Shown here one piece after another: positions 602 through 31,138 of a stretch of DNA of 64,000 nt (position 1 is the first letter of the stretch; each line of letters starts with the position of its first letter). The position numbers were made by a program, and so were the translations under genes. This DNA comes from an uncultured Acidobacteriota bacterium (GTDB lineage Bacteria > Acidobacteriota > Polarisedimenticolia > J045): assembly GCA_963702425.1 (NCBI GenBank), contig CAVPCQ010000035.1, forward strand, positions 11,781 through 75,780. The letters are read 5' to 3'. The notes under the pieces were generated by a model, which searched no databases, was not told the origin of the DNA, and was given only the letters and a program-made list of their open reading frames with translations.

Positions 602-1146
602 ATGCCGACCTACATCGCGCTCCTCCGCGGGATCAACGTCTCCGGCCGCAACACGATCCCGATGGCCGAGCTTCGCGCGCTCTGCGAGAGGTTCGGGGCC
701 ACCGACGTCCGGACGTACATCCAGAGCGGCAACGTCCTCTTCGCGGCGCACGGGCACGGGCGCCGGCGATCGAGTCCGCGCTCGAGGCGGCGATCGAGCA
801 GCGCTTCGGGTTCGCCATCCCCGTCATCGTCCGCGCGACCGCGCAGTGGCCGGGCTACATGGAGGGCAACCCCTTCCCCGAGGCCTCCGCGCGGGAGCCG
901 AGCCACGTGCTCATGGGGCTCGCCAAGGCGCCGCCGCGGAAGGGCGCAGTCGAGGCGCTGCGCGAGCGCGCAACCGCCGGCGAACGCATCGAGGCGGCCG
1001 GCGACGCGCTCTGGTTCCACTTCGCAGGTGGCGTCGCGCGCTCGAAGCTGACACCGGCGCTCATCGACCGGTTGGTTGGCTCGGCCGTCACCGCCCGCAA
1101 CTGGCGCACCGTCCAGAAGCTGGGCGAGCTGGCCGCGGGCGGGTGA
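602..1146 (+). CDS. DUF1697 family protein (frameshift near 755-765)
   Basis: N-terminus YIALLRGINVSG...TYIQSGNVLF is in one frame. C-terminus FGFAIPVIVR...TARNWRTVQKL is in another. Confidence 0.85.
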
Positions 1147-1168
1147 CGACGACGACTCGAGCGGGGCG

Positions 1169-1399
1169 CTACTTCTTCCGGGACTTCTTCGGCTCGTCGT
1201 GCTCGACGATGAAGGTGACGCGCATCGTCACGCGGTACTCGACGACCTTGCCCTTGTCGACGACGACCTTCTGCTCGGAGACCCAGGCCCCGTGCACGTG
1301 ATCCACGGTCTCGGCCACCGTGGCGATGCCGGAGCGCACGGCATCCTCGAAACCCTTGGTCGACGAGGACGTGACTTCGATCACCTTCGCGACGGACAT
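1169..1399 (-). CDS. Dodecin family (flavin-binding) protein
   Basis: 76 aa, MSVAKVIEVTSSSTKGFEDAV...VVEYRVTMRVTF. A GGAGG RBS lies upstream. Confidence 0.9.
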   Translation of the reverse strand: MSVAKVIEVTSSSTKGFEDAVRSGIATVAETVDHVHGAWVSEQKVVVDKGKVVEYRVTMRVTFIVEHDEPKKSRKK

Positions 1400-1478
1400 C
1401 TTCCCTCCTCCGCGGCGCCGCATCGGGGGCGGGCCGTCGGAAGGAGTATAGGAGACCTGGACGGCGGACGGAACCCGC

Positions 1479-3458
1479 TCAGAGCCGCCAGATGAACCCG
1501 CCGCGCACCGTCGCCCCCGGCATCGGGTAACCCGGCCGGTAGCTGTAATCGGTGTCCGTGAGGTTCTCGCCGGTGACGAACAGCTGGATCCCGTTCTCCT
1601 TCGCCGACAGATCCCACGCCACACGCCCGTTGAGCAGCAGGAAGCCGTCTACCGCCTCCGGCTGGCCGGGGAAGCGCGGGTTGCCGACGAACCGGTCGTC
1701 GATCCACTGCGCGTCGAGGTTGACCTGCCAGCGCGCGGCCGGCGCCCAGTTGAGCCCCGCGACGGCCGTCCACTGGGGGGTGTACGGGATGTCGTCGGGA
1801 TCGGTCGTCGTGTAGGTCGCACCGATCATGATGTCCACCGTCCGCGCCGGTTTGACGGTGAAGGTCGCCTCCACCCCGCGGATCAGGTACGACCCGATGT
1901 TGTCGAAGCTGGGCGGCGGCGGCGGGGGCGGGACGAAGCGCAGCGCGTCGCGGACATCGGATCGGAAAAGCGCGACGTCGAGGTGCGCCGAGCGGCCGAG
2001 CGCGAGCCCCGTGCCGACTTCGAACTGCTCCTGGCGCTCCGGTTCGAGCGTGAGCCAGCCGTCGCGGTTGGGGCCGAAGCCGCCGTAGAGGAACGCGGTC
2101 CAGACGCCGGGAAGGTTGTAGGAGTCGGACCAGCGCGCATAGACCTGGCCCCACGCGCCACGCAGCACCAGCCCCGCCTGCCCGCCCCAGTCGCCGCCGA
2201 AGTAGCGGCTGTCGTTGTAGCGCAGGCCGGCCGACGGCACGAGTTCCGTTCCGCTGCCGCCGAGGGGGATCGCCCAGTTCGCCGCGAGGTACGGCGAGCT
2301 GTTGCGGAAGTGGAGGTCGCCAAGCGGCTGGTCGGGCTGGCCGCGGCGCGTCTCCCGGGCCCGGCCGCCGTAGAAGTCCTGGTCGAAGCCGGCGACGAGC
2401 TCGCCGCGCGCCGCGATCCGGAAGGTGGCCTTCAACCGAGCGCCGTAGTTGAGGTAGTCGGTGAGCGTGGTGAAGACATCTTCCCCGGCGGAGCCGGTCT
2501 CCACCTGCTGCCAGTCGAGCCCGCCATCGTCGGCGTAGAGGCGAACCGACCCGCTCCAGCGCTCGCCGGTGTGCTCCAGCGCCAGGAGGCCGATCAGGTC
2601 CTCGACGGCGAAGCGCGGCGTCACCGAGGGCTTCGGCGCCCCCTCGGGCCCCGGGTCGTTGGCCCACGCGTCGTTGTAGTCGGCGAGCAGCGACAGGTCC
2701 CAGCCCGGCGCGACCTGCCAGCCCACGCGCGCGAAGGCGTCGGTCACGCGGCCGTCGGCATCCTCGCGGTGCCCGTCGCTGCGGGTGGTGCTGGCGGCGG
2801 CGAAGTAGTCGAATTCCCCCTGCCGGCCGCCGTACTCGAGGGCCGCCTCGCCGAAGCGATCGACGCCGAGCGAGGCCAGCAGCTGCCCGCCGTGTCCTTC
2901 TCCCACGTAGCGCTTCGGCACCAGGTTGACCGCGGCGAAGGCCATGTTCCCGAGCAGCGCCGGCTCGGGCGCCTTGTGCACGTCGATCCGCGCCGTGGTG
3001 TGGACCGGCATCGTGTCGAGCAGCGGGTGGGTCCAGATGCCGACGAAGCGCGGGACGCCGTCGTACAGGGTCGTGATCTCCGCCCCGGGACGGCCCGAGC
3101 CCTGTCCGCGGATGAAGATCGCGCCGCCGTCGGCGCCGCCGTAGCTGCCGACGGCGTTGTAGCGCGAGATCACCACCCCCGGCACCCGCCGCAGCGCCGA
3201 CGCGAAGTCGACCGCGTCGAGGTCCTCGATCTGGCGTTCCCCGACGCGCACGATCGGGTTGCCGTAGGCGTCGACCGTCGTCTCCTCGACCACCGGCGAG
3301 GCGACGACCGTCACCTCCTCGGTGACGCCCGAGGGAAGCGGGGGCTCCGTCGGGGTCTGGGGCGGGTTCGCCGGCTCCTCGGCGGCGACGGCTGCGAAGG
3401 CGGCGACGCAGACCAGGCAGGGGGCCACGACGACGGCGAGCATCCGGTGGAGCGGCAT
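1479..3458 (-). CDS. TonB-dependent receptor, probably for metal (Ni/Co) chelates or cobalamin
   Basis: Signal peptide, TonB-box-like EEVTVVA, plug motifs (ALRRVPGV, IFIRG, LYDGVP), LEPE and ENLTD motifs, C-terminal beta strand GGFIWRL. Directly downstream of nikR. Confidence 0.9.
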   Translation of the reverse strand: MPLHRMLAVVVAPCLVCVAAFAAVAAEEPANPPQTPTEPPLPSGVTEEVTVVASPVVEETTVDAYGNPIVRVGERQIEDLDAVDFASALRRVPGVVISRYNAVGSYGGADGGAIFIRGQGSGRPGAEITTLYDGVPRFVGIWTHPLLDTMPVHTTARIDVHKAPEPALLGNMAFAAVNLVPKRYVGEGHGGQLLASLGVDRFGEAALEYGGRQGEFDYFAAASTTRSDGHREDADGRVTDAFARVGWQVAPGWDLSLLADYNDAWANDPGPEGAPKPSVTPRFAVEDLIGLLALEHTGERWSGSVRLYADDGGLDWQQVETGSAGEDVFTTLTDYLNYGARLKATFRIAARGELVAGFDQDFYGGRARETRRGQPDQPLGDLHFRNSSPYLAANWAIPLGGSGTELVPSAGLRYNDSRYFGGDWGGQAGLVLRGAWGQVYARWSDSYNLPGVWTAFLYGGFGPNRDGWLTLEPERQEQFEVGTGLALGRSAHLDVALFRSDVRDALRFVPPPPPPPSFDNIGSYLIRGVEATFTVKPARTVDIMIGATYTTTDPDDIPYTPQWTAVAGLNWAPAARWQVNLDAQWIDDRFVGNPRFPGQPEAVDGFLLLNGRVAWDLSAKENGIQLFVTGENLTDTDYSYRPGYPMPGATVRGGFIWRL

Positions 3459-3482
3459 GACGACACCTCTTGACCGTCGCGC

Positions 3483-3890
3483 TCAGCGCGACGCGGATCC
3501 GATCACGAGACGGGCCTGCAGGACCCCCTTGAGGCGGCCGAGCCGGTCGGCGACGCGGCGCAGCTCGGCGGGCCGGCCGCGCAGGGCGTGGACCTCGAGG
3601 CAGAGGTCGTGGTCGAGGTGGACGTGCAGCGTCGCCAGGATCCGGCCGTGGTGCTCGTGCCCCTCGTCGATCAGCCGGTCGGCGAGATCGCGGCGGGTGT
3701 GGTCGTAGACGAGCGTGAGCGTGGCCACGGCGTCGCCGGCGCCGCGCTCCCACTCCTCCTCGACGAGGCCGCGGCGGATCATCTCGCGGATCGCCTCCGA
3801 GCGGTTGGCGAGGCCCCGTCGCGTGACGAAGCGGTCGAGGCGGCCGAGGAGCTGCTTTTCGATCGCGAGGCTGACCCGTTCGACGCTCAC
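3483..3890 (-). CDS. nikR: Nickel-responsive transcriptional regulator NikR
   Basis: Ribbon-helix-helix N-terminus (RVSLAI...NRSEAIREMIR) and metal-binding domain YDH...LHVHLDHDLCLEV. GTG start with AGGAG RBS. Confidence 0.95.
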   Translation of the reverse strand: MSVERVSLAIEKQLLGRLDRFVTRRGLANRSEAIREMIRRGLVEEEWERGAGDAVATLTLVYDHTRRDLADRLIDEGHEHHGRILATLHVHLDHDLCLEVHALRGRPAELRRVADRLGRLKGVLQARLVIGSASR

Positions 3891-3904
3891 GCGTTCTCTC
3901 CTTC

Positions 3905-3929
3905 ATACGAATCTGAAGAATCTTCCTAC
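3905..3929. promoter_or_regulatory. Candidate NikR operator
   Basis: AT-rich imperfect dyad ATACGA-N13-TCCTAC immediately upstream of the nikR RBS. It overlaps a GTATGA/TCATAC half-site like that of the E. coli NikR operator. Confidence 0.45.
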
Positions 3930-3995
3930 CGGTCGGGGCGCAAGGTCAAGCGGGTCCGGGGACGGCCTTCGCGGGGGGTGGCGCGCCGGCGACGG

Positions 3996-5456
3996 CTACG
4001 GGGCCGACGCCGGGCCCGGGGTCGGGGGCGGCACCAGACCCGGGGGCGGGGGCGGCGGTGACGCTTCCGCCGACGCGGCCGGCGCCACGCGCAGCAGCGA
4101 CGCCGTCGGCGCGGCGAAGACGCGCAGCCCCACCGCGCCGACGCCGCGGCGCGGAATCTCGCGCGCCAGCTGCTCGGGCAGGCCGGGGACGAGCCCGATC
4201 TCGATCGTCCGGCCGCTCTTCGACGAGAAGGCGGCGCGCGGAACGACGTCGGCGACCTGGGGCTTCAGGTTCCCCTTCCCCGTCGTCGCGCCGCTGCCGA
4301 GCTGGATCCCGTCGACGAAGCAGTCCTGCGGTGGTCGCCCGATCGTCACGGGGCGGACCGCGAGGTCGAAGTAGCCCGGGGAATCGAGCCGCTCGCGGGC
4401 CAGCACGGCGGCGCGGAAGCCGAGCACGACGTAGGGCCCGAGGTGACCATGGAAGGCGGCGAGCCGCTTGAGCGGCGGCCCGGCCGCGTCGGCGGCGGCG
4501 GGCTGATCGGGCGGCGTCTCGGTCCAGAGCGCGACCAGCAGGCGGCCGTTCGCCTCGCCGTCGAGCGTGTTGAGCAGCACGGCCCGGTCGCCGGCCGCCG
4601 CCGTCAGCGTCCCCTCCGGATCGAGGTCGACCCGCCTGTCGCGCGCCGCACCGCCCGCGTCGCCGCCGAGGAAGGCGGCCACGAGCGCCGCGTCGGCCAG
4701 CGGCGGAACGGGGTGGCCCGACCCGCGCCAGACCGCGGCGAGCAGGCGCGCCGGGAGCGCCACCGAGGAGGCGAGGCGGGACGCCGTCCCCTCGGGGAGC
4801 GCGATCGCGTGCGCGGCCGTTTCCGGCACCAGGACGAGCGGGACGCCGGCGCGGAAGACGGCGCGCGCCGCGGCCGGATCGGCGTCGATGTTCCACGCGT
4901 GCTCGCCGGGCCCGCCGAGCAGCCACACCGCGGCGATCCGGCGCGCCGCGGCCGGGTCGGCGGCGAAGAGCCGCGCGAGGTTCGTCAGCGGTCCGAGCGC
5001 GAGCACCACGATCTCGGCGTCACCGTGCGCCCCGAGCACGCGCCCGATCAGCGCGGACGCGTCGCGCTCCGGCACCGCTCCCACCGCGGGAAGCGCTACC
5101 CCACCCAGCGATTCGGCGACCGCGCGCCACCGGGGGGCCTCCCCGGACGGCGTAGCCCCCGTCGCCACGGGCACCCCGGGCGCGCCCGCCAGCGCGAGGA
5201 AACGCGCTGCGTTGTCGGCGCCGCGTTCCGGCGCGGCCGCGCCGCCGACCGTCGTCACGGCCACGATCTCCACGGTCGGCGCGGCGGCGAGCGCCGCCAG
5301 CGCGGCCAGGTCGTCGAGTCCCATGTCGGTATCGACGACGACGGGAATCCTGTAGGCCGGATCGGCCGGGTCGTGGTCGGCCAGGCCGGCCCCGCTCGCC
5401 CCCAGCCCGAGCGTCACCACCGCGATCGCAACGATGACACGCCGCCCGCTGTTCAT
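3996..5456 (-). CDS. Secreted IU-nucleoside hydrolase domain fused to an FmdE-like metal-binding domain
   Basis: Signal peptide MNSGRRVIVAIAVVTLGLGASGAGLA. IUNH motifs DTDMGLDD, GPLTNLA, WNIDADPAAA. FmdE motifs FHGHLGPYVVLG and CFVDGIQLGSGATTGKGNL. Pro-rich tail. Confidence 0.8.
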   Translation of the reverse strand: MNSGRRVIVAIAVVTLGLGASGAGLADHDPADPAYRIPVVVDTDMGLDDLAALAALAAAPTVEIVAVTTVGGAAAPERGADNAARFLALAGAPGVPVATGATPSGEAPRWRAVAESLGGVALPAVGAVPERDASALIGRVLGAHGDAEIVVLALGPLTNLARLFAADPAAARRIAAVWLLGGPGEHAWNIDADPAAARAVFRAGVPLVLVPETAAHAIALPEGTASRLASSVALPARLLAAVWRGSGHPVPPLADAALVAAFLGGDAGGAARDRRVDLDPEGTLTAAAGDRAVLLNTLDGEANGRLLVALWTETPPDQPAAADAAGPPLKRLAAFHGHLGPYVVLGFRAAVLARERLDSPGYFDLAVRPVTIGRPPQDCFVDGIQLGSGATTGKGNLKPQVADVVPRAAFSSKSGRTIEIGLVPGLPEQLAREIPRRGVGAVGLRVFAAPTASLLRVAPAASAEASPPPPPPGLVPPPTPGPASAP

Positions 5457-5503
5457 CGGTTCCGGTCCTCCGGCTGCGGAGCGCTTCACGCTCGCCGCCC
5501 ACT

Positions 5504-7312
5504 CTACAGTGCCGGCGCGTCCCCCCGCTCCACGGCCTGCCGCGCCAGCTCGATCCCCCGCTCCAGCCGACGGACGACGCGCACGTCCGGCAGCCGGTGG
5601 CGCCAGTCGGCCCGCACCAGCGCGCGCGCGGGCTGCCGGCGCAGCCCGGCCAGGACGACCGCGACGTGGCGCCGGCGCAGGAAGTCGATCGCCGCCTCGA
5701 GGTGCACGATGCCGGTGGCGTCGATCGCGGGTACCGCCGTCAGGTCGAGCACCACGACGCGCGCGCTGCGGTCGACCGTCTCGAGGGCCTCGACTGCCTT
5801 CGCCGCGGCGCCGAAGAAGAGCGGGCCCGCCACCTCGTAGAGCACGATTCCGGGCGGCAGCGGCTCGCGCAGCGCCGGGTGGTCGGCGGTGGCCCGCTCG
5901 ATGCCGAAGACGTCCGCCATGCGCTTGATGAAGAGCATCATCGAGAGCAGCATCCCGGCTGTCACCGCGACCGTCATGTCGAAGATCACGGTCAGGCTGA
6001 AGCAGGCCAGCAGCACTGCCACGTCGGCACGCGGCGCCCCGCGCAGCAGGCGCAGGAAGTGCTGCGGCTCCGACATGTTCCAGGCCACGACCAGCAGCAG
6101 CGCGGCCATCGCCGCCATCGGCAGGTAGCCGAGGGCGGGGGCCAGCGCAAGCATCGTCGTCAGCACGACGACACCGTGGATCGCCGACGCGAGCGGCGTC
6201 CGGGCCCCACTGCGGATTCCGGTCGCCGTGCGCGCGATCGCCCCGGTCGCGGCGATCCCGCCGAAGAACGGCGCCACGACGTTGCCGATCCCCTGCGCGA
6301 CCAGCTCGGCGTCGGGGTCGTGCTTGGTCCCCTTCATCCCGTCGGCGATCGTCGCCGAGAGCAGCGACTCGATCGCGCCCAGCACGGCGATCGCGAAAGC
6401 GGAGGGGATCAGCGTGCGCACCAGGTCGAAGGAGAACCGGGCCGTCTGCCCGTCGGCGCCGCCGACGCGCCACGGCAGGACCGGGAGCGGAAGCTGGCGC
6501 GGAATCCCGGGCAGCAGCCGCCCGTCGCCGGCCTCGAAGACGAAGCGGTCCCGGATCGTCGCCACGTGGAAGCCCGGGACCAGGCGCGAGGCCAGCCACG
6601 CCGCACCGGCGGCGACCACCAGCGCGACCAGCGGCGAGGGGACCTTGCGCGTGAGCTTCGGCCACAACAGCAGCACCGCGAGCGTCAGGGTCGCGATCGC
6701 GACGTCGGGCAGGCGCGCCGTCGGCAACGCGAAGGCGATGTCGCCCAGCCGCTCGACGAAGTGGGGCGCGGGCGACTCGATCGTCAGGCCGAGCAGGTCC
6801 TTGACCTGCAGCGTCGCGATCACGACGCCGATCCCGGCCGTGAAGCCGGTCGTCACCGGGTAGGGCACGAACTCGATCAGCTTGCCGAGCCGCAGCAGCC
6901 CCATCGCGATCAGCATCAGCCCGGCCAGGACCGTCGCGACGAGCAGGCCGGAGAGGCCGAAGCGGGCCGCGATCGGCGCCAGCACGACGACGAACGCGGC
7001 GGTCGGGCCGGTCACCTGCCAGCGCGATCCGCCGAGCAGCGGGACCAGGATCCCGGCGACGATCGCGGTGGTGAGGCCGACCTGCGGGGGGACACCGGAG
7101 GCGATCGCCAGCGCCATCGAGAGCGGCAGCGCGACGATGCCGACCACCAGACCGGCCAGGATGTCGGCCCGCAGCGTACCCGCTCCGTAGCCCGGGGCGA
7201 GTGCGCCGCGGAGCGCGACGCCGAGCCGCGGCAGGCGGACCAGCGCGCCGTCCTCGCCGCGCGGCCGGTCGCCGGCGGGCGAGGCCGGCGCGGAATGCGA
7301 CGGCTCAGACGT
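5504..7312 (-). CDS. SulP/SLC26 family anion transporter with STAS domain (DauA-like C4-dicarboxylate transporter); start uncertain
   Basis: DILAGLVVGIVALPLSMALAIASG, GPTAAF, AIESLLSA, ELVAQGIGN, ATGAIARTA, and STAS GPLFFGAA...IDATG. Confidence 0.9.
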   Translation of the reverse strand, partial: TSEPSHSAPASPAGDRPRGEDGALVRLPRLGVALRGALAPGYGAGTLRADILAGLVVGIVALPLSMALAIASGVPPQVGLTTAIVAGILVPLLGGSRWQVTGPTAAFVVVLAPIAARFGLSGLLVATVLAGLMLIAMGLLRLGKLIEFVPYPVTTGFTAGIGVVIATLQVKDLLGLTIESPAPHFVERLGDIAFALPTARLPDVAIATLTLAVLLLWPKLTRKVPSPLVALVVAAGAAWLASRLVPGFHVATIRDRFVFEAGDGRLLPGIPRQLPLPVLPWRVGGADGQTARFSFDLVRTLIPSAFAIAVLGAIESLLSATIADGMKGTKHDPDAELVAQGIGNVVAPFFGGIAATGAIARTATGIRSGARTPLASAIHGVVVLTTMLALAPALGYLPMAAMAALLLVVAWNMSEPQHFLRLLRGAPRADVAVLLACFSLTVIFDMTVAVTAGMLLSMMLFIKRMADVFGIERATADHPALREPLPPGIVLYEVAGPLFFGAAAKAVEALETVDRSARVVVLDLTAVPAIDATGIVHLEAAIDFLRRRHVAVVLAGLRRQPARALVRADWRHRLPDVRVVRRLERGIELARQAVERGDAPAL

Positions 7313-8700
7313 GGATCGCTCTCCCGTCGACGGCGAGCGCCGCCTCCTTGACGACCTCGGCGAGCGTCGGGTGCGCGTGGCAGGTCCGCGCCAGGTCCTC
7401 CGACGACGCGCCAAACTCGATCGCCGCGACCGCCTCGGCGATCAGGTCGCCGGCCCGCGGGCCGAGGATGTGCACGCCGAGGATCCGGTCGGTCGCCGCG
7501 TCGGCCAGGATCTTCACCCGGCCGTCGACCTGGGCCAGCGCCTTGGCGCGCCCGTTGGCCATGAACGGGAAGCTCCCCTTGCGGTAGGCCACGCCGGCGG
7601 CCTTGAGCTCCTCCTCGGTCTTCCCCACCGACGCCACCTCGGGGTGGGTGTAGACGACGTTGGGGATCGCGTCGTAGTTGACGTGGCCGTAGCCGGTCTT
7701 GATGAACTCGGCGCAGGCGACCCCCTCGTCCTCCGCCTTGTGCGCCAGCATCGGCCCGGGGATCACGTCGCCGATCGCGAAGACCCCGGGCGCGGCCGTG
7801 CGCCAGTGCGCGTCGACCGGGATCCGTCCGCGCGCGTCGAGCGCGATCCCGACCGTCTCGAGCCCCAGCCCCTCGGTGTACGGCACGCGGCCGACCGAGA
7901 CCAGCACGCGGTCGCAGCGCAGCGGCTCGCTCCCTTCGCTTTCCACGACCGCGCCGTCGCCGTCCGCGCGCGCGCCGGTGACGCGCACGCCGGTCCGGAT
8001 CTCGAGCCCCTGCTTCTTCAGCAGCTTCTCCATCTCGGCCGCGATCTCGCCGTCCATCCCGGGCAGGATCCGGTCGAGGTACTCGAGCACCGTCACCTTC
8101 GCCCCGAGCCGCGCCCAGACCGAGCCCAGCTCCAGCCCGATCGCGCCGGCGCCGATCACGACCAGGTGCTGCGGGACCTCGGGGTAGGACAGCGCCTCGG
8201 TGCTGGTGCCGACCCGCTCGCCGTCGAAGCGTCACGCCGCGCAGCGGCGCCGACCGGCTGCCGGTCGCGAGGATGACGTGCTTCGCGGCGAGCGCCGTCG
8301 CCGTCCCGTCGGCCGCGTCGACCACGACCTGGCCTGGACCCGCCAGCCGGCCCCGGCCCGCGTAGCGCGTGATCCTGTTCTTGCGGAACAGCCCCTCGAC
8401 CCCCTTGGTGAGCGCTGTGACGATGTCGGTCTTGCGCTTCAGCATCTCCGCCAGGTCGAGCTCGACGCCGGCCAGCCTGATCCCCTGGCGCGGGAAGCCC
8501 TTCTTCGCCTCGGCGAACAGCTCGGACGACTCGAGCAGCGCCTTGGACGGGATGCAGCCGATCCGGAGGCAGGTCCCGCCGAGCGCCGGCTCGATCTCGA
8601 CGCACGCCGTGTCGAGCCCGAGCTGCGCCGCGCGGATCGCGGCGACGTACCCGCCCGGCCCGGCCCCGATGACGACGACCTCGTGCTCCTTCGCGGCCAT
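7305..8700 (-). CDS. lpdA: Dihydrolipoyl dehydrogenase (E3), frameshift near 8225
   Basis: GAGPGGY, GGTCLRIGCIPSKAL, GAGAIGLE, MLAHKAEDEG and HAHPTLAE are split across two frames. Confidence 0.95.
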
Positions 8701-8701
8701 C

Positions 8702-9976
8702 TCAGACCTCCAGCAGGATGCGCTGCGGGTTCTCGACGCACTCCTTGATCCGCTTGAGGAAGGTGACCGACTCGCGGCCGTCGATGACGCGGTGGTCGTA
8801 GGTCAGGGCGACGTACATCATCGGCCGGATCACGACCTGCCCGTCCCGGGCCACCGGCCGGTCCTGGATCGCGTGCAGCCCCAGGATCCCGCTCTGCGGG
8901 TAGTTGAGGATCGGGGTCGAGAGCATCGAGCCGTAGATCCCGCCGTTGCTGATCGTGAAGGTCCCGCCGACCAGGTCCTCGAGCGTCAGCTTGTTGTCCT
9001 TGGCCTTCCGGGCGTACTCGCCGATCGCGACCTCGATCTCGGCGAACGAGAGCTTCTCGGCGTTGCGGATGATCGGCACGACCAGTCCGCGGCCGCCGCC
9101 GACCGCGATCCCGACGTCGTAGTAGTTGCGGTAGACGATCGTCTCGCCGCGGATCTCGGCGTTGACCTGCGGCACCTCCTTGAGCGCCTCGATCGCGGCC
9201 TTGACGAAGAACGACATGAAGCCGAGCCGCACGCCGTACTTCTTCTCGAACGGCTCCTTGAACTCGGCCCGCAGCGCCATGACGTTCGTCATGTCGATCT
9301 CGTTGAACGTCGTGAGCATCGCGGTGACCTGCTTGGCCTGCACCAGGCGCTCGGCCGCGCGCTTGCGCAGCGGGGTCATCGGGACCGCGTCCTCCAGCCG
9401 CGGGTGGGTCGGCAGGTTGCGCGCGGGAGCCGAGGGGAGCGCGGCAAGGCCGGCGCCGCCCGGGGCGGACGCGGGACCGGGCGCAACCGCCGCGCGCTGC
9501 ACGTCCTCCTTCAGCATCCGGCCGCCCGGACCGGTGGGGGTCACCTGCGCTGCGGCGAGGCCGGCGTCGTGCAGCGCCCGCGCGGCGGCCGGCATCACGA
9601 ACGGCGCGCCGGATGGGGCGACAGCGGCCGGAACGGCGGGGGGCGCCGGCGGGGCCGACGCTGGAGCCGACGAAGCCGGCGCCGGCGCTGGAGGGGCCGT
9701 CGCGGCTGCGGCCGGCGCAGCCTTCACCGCTGGCGCCGCCCCCTCCTCGATCAGCGCCAGCACCTCGCCGATCTTCGCGTACTCGCCTTCCTGCTTCTTC
9801 AGCTCGAGCAGCGCGCCGGAGACGGGCGCCGGCAGCTCCTGGGTGATCTTGTCGGTCTCGAGCACGACCAGCGGCTCGTCCTGCGCGAACGGCTCGCCGG
9901 GCTGCTTGAGCCAGCGCGCGATCAGCGCCTCGTTGATCGACTCGCCGAACGACGGGACCTTCAGTTCCAGCGGCAT
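8702..9976 (-). CDS. sucB: 2-oxoglutarate dehydrogenase E2, dihydrolipoyllysine-residue succinyltransferase
   Basis: Lipoyl domain LETDKIT, E3-binding GTG-like [12 protein letters not shown], catalytic [10 protein letters not shown]. Confidence 0.97.
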
Positions 9977-9995
9977 GTCCGTTCCTTCTGTCGTT

Positions 9996-10099
9996 CGGGC
10001 CGGCACGGAGTGCCGGCCCCTACATGGGCGGGCCGGCACGGAGGCCGGCCCCTACATCCGGCGGGAGCACCGTAGGGGCCGGCCTCCGTGCCGGCCCGC
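9996..10099. repeat. Cluster of three GTAG-type REP palindromes (two direct, one inverted; BIME-like)
   Basis: Unit GTAGGGGCCGGCCTCCGTGCCGGCCCG at 10072-10098, with reverse-complement copies at ~9996-10023 and ~10028-10055, between sucA and sucB. Confidence 0.85.
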
Positions 10100-10101
10100 C
10101 C

Positions 10102-12930
10102 CTACGTCCTCGCCTCGACCGCGAACGCGCGCTCGACGAGCTGCTGCTGCTCGAGCGCGTGGCTCTTCGCCGAACCGGTCGCCGGGCTCGCCGACGACTC
10201 GCGCGTCACGCCCGAGAAGGGCCAGCGCCCGAACAGCGTCTCGCCGAAGCGCGCGCGGAAGGCGCGCCAGGCTCCCATGTTCTCCGGCTCCTCCTGCACC
10301 CAGACGACCGGCGTCCCCGGACGGTAGGGCTCGAACGCGGCGAGCAGCGTGGCGTCGGCCAGCGGGTAGAGCTGCTCGATCCGCAGGATCGCGACGTCGC
10401 GCCGTCCGGCTTCCTCGCGCGCCCTGGCGAGGTCGAAGTAGACCTTGCCGGTCGCGCACAGCACCCGCCCGACCTCCGCCGGCACGGTCTGCCCCACGTC
10501 GGGCAGGATGCGCCGGAAGCGCCCCGTCGCCAGCTCGCCCAGCGAGGAGACGACTTGCGGGTGGCGCAGCAGGCTCTTGGGGGTCATCACGACCAGCGGT
10601 TTGCGCAGCGGGCGGACCACCTGGCGGCGCAGCGCGTGATAGTACTGGGCCGGGGTCGTCGGCTGGATCAGTTGGATGTTGTCGTCGGCGGCCAACGCCA
10701 GGAAGCGCTCGAGCCGCGCGGAGGAATGCTCCGGGCCCTGGCCCTCGAAGCCGTGCGGCAGGAGCAGCGCCAGGCCCGACAGCCGCTCCCACTTGTCCTC
10801 GGCGCTGACCAGGAACTGGTCCACGATCACCTGCGCCCCGTTGACGAAGTCGCCGAACTGCGCCTCCCAGAGCACCAGCGCCTCGGGCATCTCGAGGCTG
10901 TAGCCGTACTCGAACCCGAGCACACCGGCCTCGGAGAGCGGGCTGTTGATGATCGCCACCGGCGCCTGGTCCGGTGCGAGGTGCTGCAGCGGCAGGGTGC
11001 GCGCCCCGGTCTTCACGTCGGTGATCGCGGCGTGGCGGTGGCTGAAGGTGCCGCGCTGCGAGTCCTGTCCCGACAAGCGCACCGGGTGGCCTTCCACCGC
11101 CAGCGTCGCGAAGGCCAGCGCCTCGGCGGCGGACCAGTCGATCGGGCGCTTGCCTTCCGCCATCTCCCGCCGCTGGCCCAGCCAGCGCTCGATCTTGGGA
11201 TGAGGCGTGAAGCCGTCCGGGAGGCGCGTCTGGGCCTCCAGCAGCCGTGCGAGCGTGCTCTCGGGCACGCCGGTGTCGACCTCGGGGGTCTTGTCGTCGT
11301 CCCCTCCGTGGTAGCCGCCCCAGGTGCCACGCAGCTCGTTCCCCTTGAGCTGGTACTCGGGGCTGCGGGCGACCGACAGCTCGCGCTCCAGGTTCTCGCG
11401 GCGCGCCCGCGCGATCTCGTCGGCCTCCTCCTTCGTCACGCCGGACAGCGCGAGCAGGTGGTCGAGGTACCCCTCGCGCACCGACTTTCGGCGCTTGATC
11501 GCGGCGTACATCAGGGGCTGCGTGAACTCGGGCTCGTCGCCTTCGTTGTGGCCATAGCGCCGGTAGGCGTACATGTCGATCACGACGTCGCGCCGGAACT
11601 CGCGCCGGTAGTCCATCGCCAGGTGGATCACCTGCGCGACGGCCTCGGGGTCCTCGCCGTTGACGTGGAAGATCGGGACCTGGAGCATCTTCGCCACGTC
11701 GGTGGCGTAGGTCGTCGAGCGCGACTCCTCGGGATCGGTGGTGAAGCCGATCTGATTGTTGACGATCACGTGCAGCGTGCCGCCGATGGCGTAACCCGGC
11801 AGCTCGCTCATGTTGAGCGTCTCCTGCACGATCCCCTGCCCGGCGAAGGCCGCGTCGCCGTGGATCAGGATCGCCAGGCCGCGGGTCCGCGAGGCGTCGC
11901 CGTGGCGCTCCTCCTTGGCCCGCGTGCGCCCGACCGCCACCGGGTCGACGAACTCGAGGTGGCTCGGGTTGAAGCAGAGCGTCAGGTGGATGCTGCGGCC
12001 GTTGCTGCAGGTGGTGTCCGCGCTGTACCCCATGTGGTACTTGACGTCGCCCCGGCCGAAGAAGTTCTCGGGGTCGTTGTCGTCGAACTCGCGGAAGATC
12101 TGGGCCGGGCTCTTGCCGACGATGTTGGCCAGCACGTTGATCCGGCCGCGGTGCGCCATCCCGAACACGACCTCGTCCACACCGTGCTCGGCCGCCGTCT
12201 CGACCGCGATGTCGAGCAGCGGGATCAGGCTCTCGGCCCCCTCCAGCGAGAAGCGCTTGGCCCCGAGGTACTTGCGCTGGATGAACTCCTCGAAGACGAC
12301 CGCGTCGGTGAGCTTGGTCAGCAGGCGCAGCTGCTCGTCGCGGGTCAGAAGGATCCGGTTCTGCGAGGCCTCCATCCGCTCCTGCAGCCACAGCTTGGGA
12401 CGGATGTCGTCGATGTGCATGTACTGCGCGCCGATCGAGCGGCAGTAGGTGTTCTTCAGCCGCTCGAGGACCTCGCGGAAGGTCAGCGCGCCGGGCGAGC
12501 CGGCGATCGTGCGCGAGGAGACGACCTTGTCCATGTCGGCTTCGGTGAAGCCGTAGTGGGACGGGTCGAGCTCCGGGTGTGGCGGGCGCGGCAGCCCCAG
12601 GGGGTCCAGGCGCGCGATCAGGTGCCCGCGCACGCGGTAGGCCCGCACGATCTGGTCGACGCGGTCCTGCCGGGCAGCGACGTCCGCTTCCTGGCGGATC
12701 ACGGCGCAGGTCTCGCAGGCGTCCTTCGTCGGGTGGAAGAGCGAGGGCGGCCGGAAGGAGGGGCCGTGGCGGGCCGGCTGGTCCATCGCCGGCAGGCCGA
12801 CGAAGTAGTCCCGCCAGGCCTCGGAGACCGACAGCGGATCGCGCTGCCAGTCCTCGTAGAGGGCTTCGACGAACGCGAGGTTCAGGGGGACGTGCTCGTG
12901 CTCGGGGTGGCGCTGTTCGCCGTCGCTCAT
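10102..12930 (-). CDS. sucA: 2-oxoglutarate dehydrogenase E1
   Basis: KRFSLEG, GMAHRGR, GDVKYH, NPSHLE, HGDAAFAGQG, RLSGQD, WEAQFGDF and GPEHSSAR. Confidence 0.98.
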   Translation of the reverse strand: MSDGEQRHPEHEHVPLNLAFVEALYEDWQRDPLSVSEAWRDYFVGLPAMDQPARHGPSFRPPSLFHPTKDACETCAVIRQEADVAARQDRVDQIVRAYRVRGHLIARLDPLGLPRPPHPELDPSHYGFTEADMDKVVSSRTIAGSPGALTFREVLERLKNTYCRSIGAQYMHIDDIRPKLWLQERMEASQNRILLTRDEQLRLLTKLTDAVVFEEFIQRKYLGAKRFSLEGAESLIPLLDIAVETAAEHGVDEVVFGMAHRGRINVLANIVGKSPAQIFREFDDNDPENFFGRGDVKYHMGYSADTTCSNGRSIHLTLCFNPSHLEFVDPVAVGRTRAKEERHGDASRTRGLAILIHGDAAFAGQGIVQETLNMSELPGYAIGGTLHVIVNNQIGFTTDPEESRSTTYATDVAKMLQVPIFHVNGEDPEAVAQVIHLAMDYRREFRRDVVIDMYAYRRYGHNEGDEPEFTQPLMYAAIKRRKSVREGYLDHLLALSGVTKEEADEIARARRENLERELSVARSPEYQLKGNELRGTWGGYHGGDDDKTPEVDTGVPESTLARLLEAQTRLPDGFTPHPKIERWLGQRREMAEGKRPIDWSAAEALAFATLAVEGHPVRLSGQDSQRGTFSHRHAAITDVKTGARTLPLQHLAPDQAPVAIINSPLSEAGVLGFEYGYSLEMPEALVLWEAQFGDFVNGAQVIVDQFLVSAEDKWERLSGLALLLPHGFEGQGPEHSSARLERFLALAADDNIQLIQPTTPAQYYHALRRQVVRPLRKPLVVMTPKSLLRHPQVVSSLGELATGRFRRILPDVGQTVPAEVGRVLCATGKVYFDLARAREEAGRRDVAILRIEQLYPLADATLLAAFEPYRPGTPVVWVQEEPENMGAWRAFRARFGETLFGRWPFSGVTRESSASPATGSAKSHALEQQQLVERAFAVEART

Positions 12931-30708: not shown

Positions 30709-31138
30709 ACGCCTTTCTCCCTCGGCGGGGCGGGCCAGACCCCGCGCTGCGCTACTTTGACATGCCGGCGAGGGTATGTCTCCCAGGCTGCGCTTCCCGC
30801 CGGGTCGGAAAATGCAGCAGTTCCTGGCCCGGGAGGACGGAGCCATGGATCTTGTCGGCGTGCTTGTCGAGAAAGGCGTCCATAGTCCAAGCGCACCACC
30901 GAACAGGGTCCGAGGGCAAGGGCCCTTACCGGATCGCGATGGTCAGCGACTTGGTTGCGGCCGGAGCGCCGCGGCAGGTGGTATTGGCCGGGTTTCGCTA
31001 CGGGCTCAGGGTAGCACCGGCGAGTAGGGACGGCCCTCCGGCGCTGACCTGCACCTGGTGTGTTGGTGGTGGAAGCCCTTACCAACCGTCGACGACGCGC
31101 TCGTGAACGCCAGAGTGCTCAAAGACGACACCGTCCCC

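Follow-up and report, generated by a model that had tools for sequence, protein, structure and literature searches.

The window analysed here, a stretch of 64,000 nucleotides from the genome of an uncultured Acidobacteriota bacterium, carries between positions 1479 and 5456 the genes of a secreted protein that joins a nucleoside hydrolase fold to an FmdE domain (hereafter the fusion, or P0001), of the nickel regulator NikR and of a TonB-dependent receptor (TBDT). The fusion is a real and recurrent architecture, and the gene order, the domains, the conserved residues and the recurrent genomic linkage were all directly observed. The reading we favour, with somewhat better than even confidence, is that the locus is a nickel-acquisition module, in which the receptor would import, the fusion would act as its periplasmic partner and an energy-coupling factor (ECF) importer of the NikM type would carry the metal inward.

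According to the map of open reading frames (ORFs), the three genes are head-to-tail ORFs, all on the minus strand. The features of the locus are as follows:

1479..3458, minus strand: TBDT of 659 aa, with a signal peptide, a Plug domain (residues 70-177) and, by inspection, a TonB-box-like EEVTVVA
3483..3890, minus strand: NikR of 135 aa, with a ribbon-helix-helix (RHH) domain and a NikR_C nickel-binding domain
3901..3949, minus strand: AT-rich, promoter/operator-like island 5' of nikR (by sequence inspection)
Elements of this island, minus strand: TTGACC at 3949-3944, a spacer of N17, TAGGAA at 3928-3923, an imperfect dyad CTTCA-N8-TGAAG at 3918-3901, and a Shine-Dalgarno sequence (SD) AAGGAG
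3996..5456, minus strand: secreted IU_nuc_hydro-FmdE fusion (P0001) of 486 aa, with its ATG at 5456
5379..5456, minus strand: predicted Sec signal peptide of the fusion, residues 1-26 (by inspection)
4602..5342, minus strand: nucleoside-hydrolase-fold domain, residues 39-285 (Pfam, PDB profile and Foldseek)
4077..4454, minus strand: FmdE-type alpha+beta domain, residues 335 to about 460 (Pfam, PDB profile and motif spacing)
3999..4076, minus strand: proline-rich, low-complexity C-terminal tail, residues 461-486 (low AlphaFold2 confidence)

The fusion as a single secreted chain

The initial annotation of the window had described a signal-peptide protein joining a nucleoside hydrolase domain with an intact Ca-binding motif to an FmdE-like HGH...C domain, encoded directly upstream of nikR and a TBDT on the same strand; this description holds in all its parts. 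In the Pfam scan, both domains lie above their curated cut-offs on one polypeptide: IU_nuc_hydro (PF01156) on residues 39-285 (E 8.3e-37, 127.9 bits, cut-off 34.2) and FmdE (PF02663) on residues 335-403 (E 4.5e-13, 49.9 bits, cut-off 22.9), the latter over profile positions 1-65 of 133, while homologues match this profile up to positions 1-133. The frame is open between the two domains in the window, with no stop, and the two domains likewise form one unbroken chain in all 62 aligned homologues. The inter-domain linker (about 4452-4600) is bridged gap-free by contigs of three public runs from two studies (X2 record 23, 4302-4644; X1 record 8, 4408-5039; X3 record 31, 4057-4731), so that a sequencing artefact fusing two genes is excluded. 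Short contigs of another run (X10), guessed to be RNA, cover parts of all three genes and are given no weight as to expression.

The AlphaFold2 (AF2) model of the whole P0001 chain, based on a 20-sequence alignment, has a predicted local distance difference test (pLDDT) of 89.2 and a predicted template modelling score (pTM) of 0.86, which suggests that the two domains are fixed in their packing. Disorder is confined to the signal peptide and the proline-rich tail, with low confidence for residues 17-31 and a pLDDT below 60 across tail residues 461-486. This tail (PPPPPPGLVPPPTPGPASAP, 3996-4080) is peculiar to P0001 among the 20 aligned homologues, and it is variable in a related strain, the contig of X1 record 7 having deletions that sum to 18 nt.

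As for secretion, the N-terminus of the fusion, MNSGRRVIVAIAVVTLGLGASGAGLA followed directly by DHDP, has on inspection an n-region with charged residues, then a hydrophobic core, and GLA before DHDP, and homologues carry AxA right before the conserved DHDP. It looks like a Sec signal peptide, with DHDPADP as the predicted mature start. Signal peptides are present in nearly all fusion homologues, and in all seven members of the NikR-linked clade the stretch from the predicted cleavage site to the DTD motif contains at least three His residues.

The FmdE half of P0001 matches the PDB profiles of 2gvi (E 1.1e-10) and 2glz (E 2.3e-5). Its motif consists of FHGHLG at residues 335-340, then C379, D382, Q385 and T391; H336, H338, G340, C379, D382 and Q385 are invariant in the 62 fusion sequences, and T391 is found in 60 of them. 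According to PMC2954224, the metal site of solved FmdE proteins is formed by FHGHxC and a Cys about 40 residues further on, followed by D, Q and T; Zn, or Zn mixed with Ni, is bound there by His15, His17, Cys19 and Cys55, the mixed occupancy being seen in one crystal. With the solved proteins 2GLZ (B8FYU2_DESHY) and 2GVI (Q9HJ63_THEAC), P0001 shares the alpha+beta core, FHGH with the distal Cys, and the second motif at the dimer axis, D-x2-Q-x5-T, and the spacing of C379-D382-Q385-T391 (3, 3, 6) is identical to that of C55-D58-Q61-T67. In this sense, its FmdE half carries the metal site of the solved family (PMC2954224). In contrast to the solved proteins, P0001 has no C-terminal zinc finger and no third-ligand Cys, the Cys of FHGHxC being Gly340 in 62 of 62 sequences, and hence not the full four-ligand set of FHGHxC plus distal Cys; its domain is moreover secreted and fused behind a nucleoside hydrolase fold. 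As Gly340 replaces the fourth ligand, the site is predicted to consist of His336, His338 and Cys379, with one open coordination position. PMC2954224 also indicates that metal transporters adjoin most members of the FmdE family, and the genes of the solved proteins, like those of the present family, commonly lie beside metal transporters.

Concerning the hydrolase half, its PDB profile matches are nucleoside hydrolases, with E down to 1.9e-37, and the top Foldseek matches are all nucleoside hydrolases as well (E about 1e-16, template modelling score by target 0.75-0.80). The fold is shared with Ca2+-dependent nucleoside N-ribohydrolases (2MAS, 1YOE, 3G5I, 4KPO and 6ZK1), the enzymes compared being the inosine-uridine nucleoside hydrolase (IU-NH) of Crithidia/Leishmania, RihA, RihB and RihC of E. 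coli, and plant NRh. The DxDxxxDD motif reads DTDMGLDD at residues 42-49, and D42, D44, D48 and D49 are kept in all 62 fusion sequences, as are T43 and D255, while N189 is found in 61 of 61. P0001 thus retains DxDxxxDD, GPLTN, the N of (F/W)N-x3-D and the equivalent of Asp242, the kept acidic and Asn residues aligning with DTDPGIDD, (A)N-x3-DPEAA and (H)D of the solved enzymes; we take them to be the Ca2+/catalytic-base motif and the ribose-site residues of IU-NH enzymes.

Unlike the classical N-ribohydrolases, which are cytosolic, P0001 is predicted to be secreted, and the base side of its pocket is rebuilt. The His82-region loop of IU-type enzymes is replaced by P108-x-W110-R111, of which P108, W110 and R111 are invariant in the family alignment, and the GN...E (5'-OH-binding) loop falls short of its counterparts in 4kpo, 6zk1 and 6ba0 by about 8 residues. 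The proton-donor His is not conserved either: its position is Ala254 in P0001 and Tyr, Phe, His or Ala in 24, 15, 12 and 5 of the 62 family sequences, respectively. P0001 accordingly has neither the leaving-group residue (His241 of the IU-NH type, or the aromatic stacking of the inosine-adenosine-guanosine type) nor the usual GN...E loop, even though the invariant W110 could stack on a base. An orthologue of RihA, RihB, RihC or UriH was rejected, since the NCBIfam equivalog scores (68.8, 67.5, 56.2 and 38.4 bits) are far under the respective cut-offs (433, 382, 450 and 459). Because the Ca/ribose pocket is under strict selection despite the remodelled base pocket, the hydrolase domain most likely still binds a ligand; it may either bind or cleave a ribosyl-type ligand travelling with the metal, or provide a Ca-stabilised scaffold for FmdE.

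Distribution and genomic company

A word-indexed protein search at E up to 0.001 provided 31 proteins, 19 of which carry both domains and 12 PF01156 alone. Pattern scans based on the FmdE motif gave 120 relatives on genome contigs and 216 on metagenome contigs; the best 80 of each were kept, leaving 49 fusion loci (window excluded) and 88 FmdE-only loci after removal of duplicates. A profile search across 1.84 billion representatives showed that the fusion family comprises no fewer than 150 clusters at 50% identity, the best 150 matches all having an E of 3.6e-58 or better and most being 420-545 aa long and spanning the whole profile. Nine clusters in the ESM Atlas combine these two domains; the largest comprises 759 members, with Bacteroidota the most frequent. 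As for close relatives, no locus among the best 80 of the 216 metagenome matches exceeds about 36% identity at full length, and a full-length match was found in only one (G027) of the 40 relatives' genomes searched, 41 with the window's own.

The ORFs of the fetched loci were called with a GC3-based filter for high GC and scanned with Pfam, and all loci were surveyed by tblastn with NikR, TBDT, ZnuA, ABC-3 and HypA queries from the window and from annotated loci. Within 5 kb of the fusion, a TBDT is present in 21 of the 49 loci, NikR in 5 and both in 4. The TBDT-linked loci span several phyla, with Calditrichota, Eiseniibacteriota, Krumholzibacteriota and the window's own class among them. In four loci (L011, L014, L106 and L124; Pfam-confirmed for the first two), the order nikR-TBDT-fusion is found on one strand, of which the order in the window, fusion-nikR-TBDT, is a permutation. 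In a quick maximum-likelihood tree, the NikR-linked fusions fall into three clades, namely that of the window, that of L014, L011 and L124, and L037. The linkage of homologues to nikR and TonB receptors, on which the initial annotation had staked its interpretation, is therefore borne out for the receptor, while the linkage to NikR is less frequent and includes the four nikR-TBDT-fusion operons.

Several fusion loci differ in content. In Krumholzibacteriota-like loci without NikR (L009, L010, L021, L029, L039 and L040), genes for a SagB-like nitroreductase (TIGR03605, 96.9 bits), PAP2, a tandem-Usp protein and a PMT_2 glycosyltransferase lie 3' of the fusion on the opposite strand, a synteny that may only reflect relatedness. 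The fusion relative of L037 (P0015, 9824-12280) has a third, C-terminal tetrapyrrole-methylase domain (PF00590), an S-adenosylmethionine-dependent domain that is odd on a protein with a signal-like N-terminus; NikR is located about 2 kb upstream of it on the opposite strand. Finally, in a hypersaline-type metagenome lineage (L111, 2002-3390, and L113), the hydrolase half is broken into short ORFs with the FmdE half intact, and a pair of ABC-3 and ATP-binding cassette (ABC) ATPase genes lies about 4 kb away.

The FmdE-only loci share the FHGHLGPY motif with the FmdE subtype of the fusions. Within 5 kb, NikR is found in 29 of these 88 loci and a ZnuA/ABC-3 importer in 33, and near NikR the FmdE-only gene forms part of an importer locus of the ZnuABC, ECF or TBDT type, in some cases along with HypA. 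In support of the initial interpretation, this FmdE subtype is repeatedly linked to NikR. A signal peptide is lacking in the archaeal FmdE-only proteins; in bacteria, those encoded beside TBDTs carry lipoprotein or Sec signals, and their mature ends are rich in His. In an acidobacterial locus (L026), NikR and a TBDT are followed by a lipoprotein with the FmdE domain alone, and in L098 a TBDT is likewise paired with an FmdE-only lipoprotein. Given these two pairs, the hydrolase domain is dispensable for the partnership with the TBDT, and its distribution marks it as an add-on rather than the core of the TBDT-FmdE pair.

Among the FmdE-only loci, those of the Thermoplasmatales type (L038, L041, L046, L047, L048, L055, L057, L062, L070, as well as many metagenome loci) carry NikR divergently beside a ZnuA-type substrate-binding protein (SBP), FmdE, an ABC ATPase and an ABC-3 permease, with HypA and a Mrp/ParA-type ATPase downstream of ABC-3 in L038. 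Judging from this gene content, they probably represent a nickel importer annotated as a Zn/Mn type. Two other loci (L130, 5946-7450; L136, 5784-7546) display NikR, an ECF S-component-like membrane protein and FmdE, and L044 (7603-10393) a TBDT, an ECF-S-like protein and FmdE, the ECF-S-like proteins being a third transporter class that travels with this FmdE subtype.

Regulator, receptor and candidate nickel route

The regulator of the window carries PF01402 (RHH_1) and PF08753 (NikR_C) in Pfam, and reaches 140.6 bits against a cut-off of 105 for the NikR equivalog NF003381 and 126.7 against 83 for NF002815. Its sequence HEHH...HVHLDHDLC fits H-x-H-x5-C with an upstream His, residues that are presumably equivalent to the nickel-site residues H76, H87, H89 and C95 of E. 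coli NikR. As the window's genome (G000) gave a single NikR_C match, this NikR is the only copy found there.

The layout of the nikR promoter in the window is the same as in L011 and L124, where TTGAC(C/A)-N17-'-10' is followed by a box and the SD of nikR. In these two loci a NikR-type box, GTATTAC-N13-GTCATAC, lies between the '-10' and the SD; L106 has GTATTAC-N13-GTAACAC on a contig that starts too near the box to show the promoter. A clear NikR-type box is hence present in three of the four nikR-TBDT-fusion operons, and these boxes resemble the GTGTTAC-type NikR box reportedly described in the comparative-genomics papers of Rodionov on NikR. Where a box would be expected, the window offers nothing but an imperfect dyad rich in AT (within 3901-3930). 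A consensus promoter and terminator scan of 1000-5800 found nothing. The nikR stop and the ATG of the TBDT are separated by 24 nt, and the two genes are probably co-transcribed; as regards this genome, control by NikR is plausible for nikR-TBDT.

The receptor is assigned to the TBDTs by its Plug domain (53.1 bits in Pfam), a partial barrel match and a TonB box recognised by inspection. Over residues 470-638, in the C-terminal part of the barrel, it matches TIGR01783 with an E of 1.2e-14, a score under the cut-off set for the whole protein; the PF00593 barrel model was not reported for it and is present in its L002 orthologue. The closest receptors by tblastn are those of L026 (44% identity), L011 (35%), L002 (34%) and L014 (32%), three of which stand behind NikR, the L002 contig beginning inside the receptor gene. 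The receptors of the four nikR-TBDT-fusion loci and of L026 form one group with that of the window. A second receptor group, 23-25% identical to that of the window, lies beside the fusion in Krumholzibacteriota and related loci, without NikR. No solved relative of the receptor was found by sequence search.

The coupling of NikR and receptor has a parallel in Helicobacter pylori, where the TonB-dependent nickel transporters FrpB4 and FecA3 are reportedly repressed by NikR. The NikR gene or regulon is likewise coupled to a TonB-dependent nickel receptor there, the likeness drawn here being one of gene coupling. The periplasmic and inner-membrane nickel steps of Helicobacter are provided by NiuB/CeuE-NiuDE and NixA and, unlike the window, its NikR-TBDT nickel system has no described FmdE or nucleoside-hydrolase-fold periplasmic partner.

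The window (about 73% GC) belongs to a 73% GC genome, a metagenome-assembled genome (MAG) that is 91% complete with an estimated contamination of 5.85%. It encodes several [NiFe]-hydrogenase large subunits and HypA, and exactly one NikR and one FmdE domain were found in it, both at this locus. Neither NiCoT nor HupE/UreJ was found in this 91% complete genome. A gene for CbiM/NikM with a C-terminal PDGLE, with an ABC ATPase just downstream, is located at G000:C25:42991-45340 (L169, 3991-6340); encoded on a different contig from the NikR locus, it is a candidate for an ECF importer of Ni/Co in the inner membrane, and no riboswitch or AT-rich box was found upstream of it. With its hydrogenases, HypA, the ECF candidate and a single NikR, the organism thus needs nickel and has a candidate inner-membrane route for it. 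Two of the hydrogenase large-subunit matches (G000:C12:232285-233823 and G000:C15:1627-3165) score identically (721.5 bits), which may be due to a duplicated contig in the MAG.

Around the locus itself, the fusion adjoins a DauA-type SulP transporter gene (5504-7414; NF008660, 679 bits), and the other flanking genes encode a dodecin (1169-1390) and a DUF1697 protein. From the identity of these neighbours, it was correctly annotated from the start that the locus contains no inner-membrane nickel permease. Further along, the dihydrolipoyl dehydrogenase gene (7012-8700, minus strand) of the sucA-sucB-lpd cluster (10102-12930, 8702-10039) is apparently frameshifted, the start of Lpd being in this ORF and its C-terminal part continuing in another frame (ORF 7305-8159), with a break near 8160-8200.

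Readings of the locus and their meaning

Under the favoured reading, the receptor would import nickel or a nickel chelate across the outer membrane under the control of NikR. The secreted fusion, as its periplasmic partner, would take the metal on the predicted His2Cys site of FmdE, the NikM/CbiM-type ECF importer encoded elsewhere would probably carry it over the inner membrane, and HypA and the [NiFe]-hydrogenases would receive the nickel in turn. Nickel as the metal, the periplasmic hand-off, the role of NikR and any catalysis are what we infer from the sequences. A metal-binding protein encoded with an importer and handing its ion on is a concept with precedents: AztD is the periplasmic metallochaperone of the zinc SBP AztC, and HypA a nickel chaperone with an N-terminal His motif. 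The mature N-termini of the fusions also contain His residues, as do the N-terminal His motifs of nickel chaperones such as HypA, although the folds of AztD and HypA are unrelated to the fusion, for which ion transfer is a proposal only. Of the interpretation first given to the locus, the secreted fusion, its linkage to TBDT and NikR and its metal site are supported, while the cleavage of a chelate and the control of the fusion by NikR in this genome are neither supported nor refuted.

Several observations weigh against a nickel-acquisition module. At the regulatory level, GTRTTAC-N13/14-GTAAYAC with up to 3 mismatches has no match at the locus, and the canonical NikR box with N13 has none in the whole window. 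(The single N14 match, at 30990, has no connection with the locus and is at chance level, with 21 of 100 shuffles.) The fusion gene is located upstream of the AT-rich nikR promoter island and not behind it, so that its control by NikR is not evident in the window, and its own 47-nt spacer after the SulP gene has no AT-rich box; as judged from this layout, NikR control of the fusion itself is unproven in this genome. At the level of the family, NikR accompanies only 5 of the 49 fusion loci, and 27 lack NikR as well as a TBDT within 5 kb. Of the 21 loci whose flanks each extend over at least 3.5 kb, 10 have a TBDT and 1 has NikR, and many Krumholzibacteriota loci carry PAP2, Usp, PMT_2 and SagB-like nitroreductase genes instead. 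These proportions are rough, because retrieval relied on the FmdE motif, tblastn was run with few queries and related genomes are not independent. Lastly, in the solved FmdE sites zinc is held at least as readily as nickel (PMC2954224).

Part of this evidence would fit an adjacency without shared function, with a periplasmic hydrolase for nucleoside or ribosyl salvage, bearing an FmdE domain with structural zinc, next to an autonomous nikR-TBDT pair. The AT-rich island at 3901-3949 implies that the fusion is outside the nikR-TBDT transcription unit, no NikR box was found upstream of the fusion, more than half of the fusion loci (the same 27) have neither partner nearby, and the Ca and ribose residues of the hydrolase fold are all kept. 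Such an adjacency is nevertheless unlikely, in view of the TBDTs within 5 kb in 21 loci from several phyla, the four loci where the fusion is inside a NikR-headed operon and the FmdE subtype that is, even by itself, NikR-linked in 29 of 88 loci.

Still less credence is given to another metal or to a corrinoid or tetrapyrrole, that is, the capture of Zn or Co or the processing of an imported cobamide with an N-glycosidic lower ligand. Solved FmdE sites do bind Zn (PMC2954224), FmdE-only relatives occur within ZnuA/ABC-3 operons, and the plug region of the receptor is weakly BtuB-like (TIGR01779, E 2.1e-8, far below cut-off). The tetrapyrrole-methylase domain of the L037 relative points the same way, but it represents a single lineage. 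The recurrent regulator is NikR and not Zur or a B12 riboswitch, and HypA follows the archaeal operon in L038. In an Rfam scan of 11 fusion or FmdE loci (137,288 bases), no family reached its gathering score, cobalamin, NiCo and Moco riboswitches included, and at E up to 0.1 no Rfam family at all was found in the window's locus or in the CbiM locus. It is these absences, together with NikR and HypA as recurrent company, that weaken this explanation.

An equally low probability is assigned to the cleavage of a chelate, as proposed in the initial annotation, in which the receptor would import a ribosyl N-glycosidic nickel chelate or cofactor, the hydrolase would cut it and FmdE would capture the nickel. 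The strict conservation of the catalytic-base and Ca/ribose residues (62 of 62) favours it, the invariant and family-specific W110-R111 would fit a stacked, anionic leaving group, the stable joining to a metal site, modelled at high pTM, suggests that the two pockets cooperate, and the loss of the classical 5'-OH-binding loop would admit 5'-substituted ribosides. It is improbable, too, that in such a variant the predicted W110 and R111 hold the leaving group while the three-ligand His2Cys site takes nickel at its open fourth position; the ligand could then be ribosylated, probably anionic and aromatic, such as a nucleoside-type metallophore or a scavenged cofactor resembling the nickel-pincer nucleotide. 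Against this stand the TBDT-FmdE pairs of L026 and L098 that do without the hydrolase domain, the Ala at the proton-donor His position of P0001, which varies across the family, and the lack of chelate-biosynthesis genes nearby. We know of no ribosylated nickel chelate, and no such nickelophore surfaced in the literature searches. Cleavage is thus neither supported nor refuted, and nothing in the locus points to such a chelate.

The statement that no characterised system has this architecture agrees with the searchable literature, which omits most subscription journals: nothing in it joins FmdE with NikR, TonB receptors or nucleoside hydrolases, and FmdE is not mentioned in PMC11247825.

For the nickel-acquisition module, then, NikR-linked outer-membrane nickel uptake is already known, and what is new is the hydrolase-FmdE protein, its probable periplasmic component, of which no description was found in the searchable literature. 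As far as we are aware, detailed knowledge of how nickel passes the outer membrane and the periplasm exists for few bacteria, hardly any of them other than Helicobacter, and the FmdE family has had no known function since the methanogen genetics of the 1990s. The locus belongs to a widespread set of systems in which an uncharacterised secreted protein accompanies TBDTs; the FmdE half of this protein is met again with NikR, next to three different importer classes, in bacteria and archaea. The FmdE family hereby gains a testable role in nickel handling, and genes annotated as 'nucleoside hydrolase' or 'zinc ABC transporter' are flagged as probable components of nickel uptake. If the hydrolase domain is catalytic, it would point to an unknown kind of nickel ligand; were the cleavage of a chelate to prove true, it would reveal a class of ribosyl-containing nickel chelates and a mechanism of release by glycoside hydrolysis that would be new for any metal.

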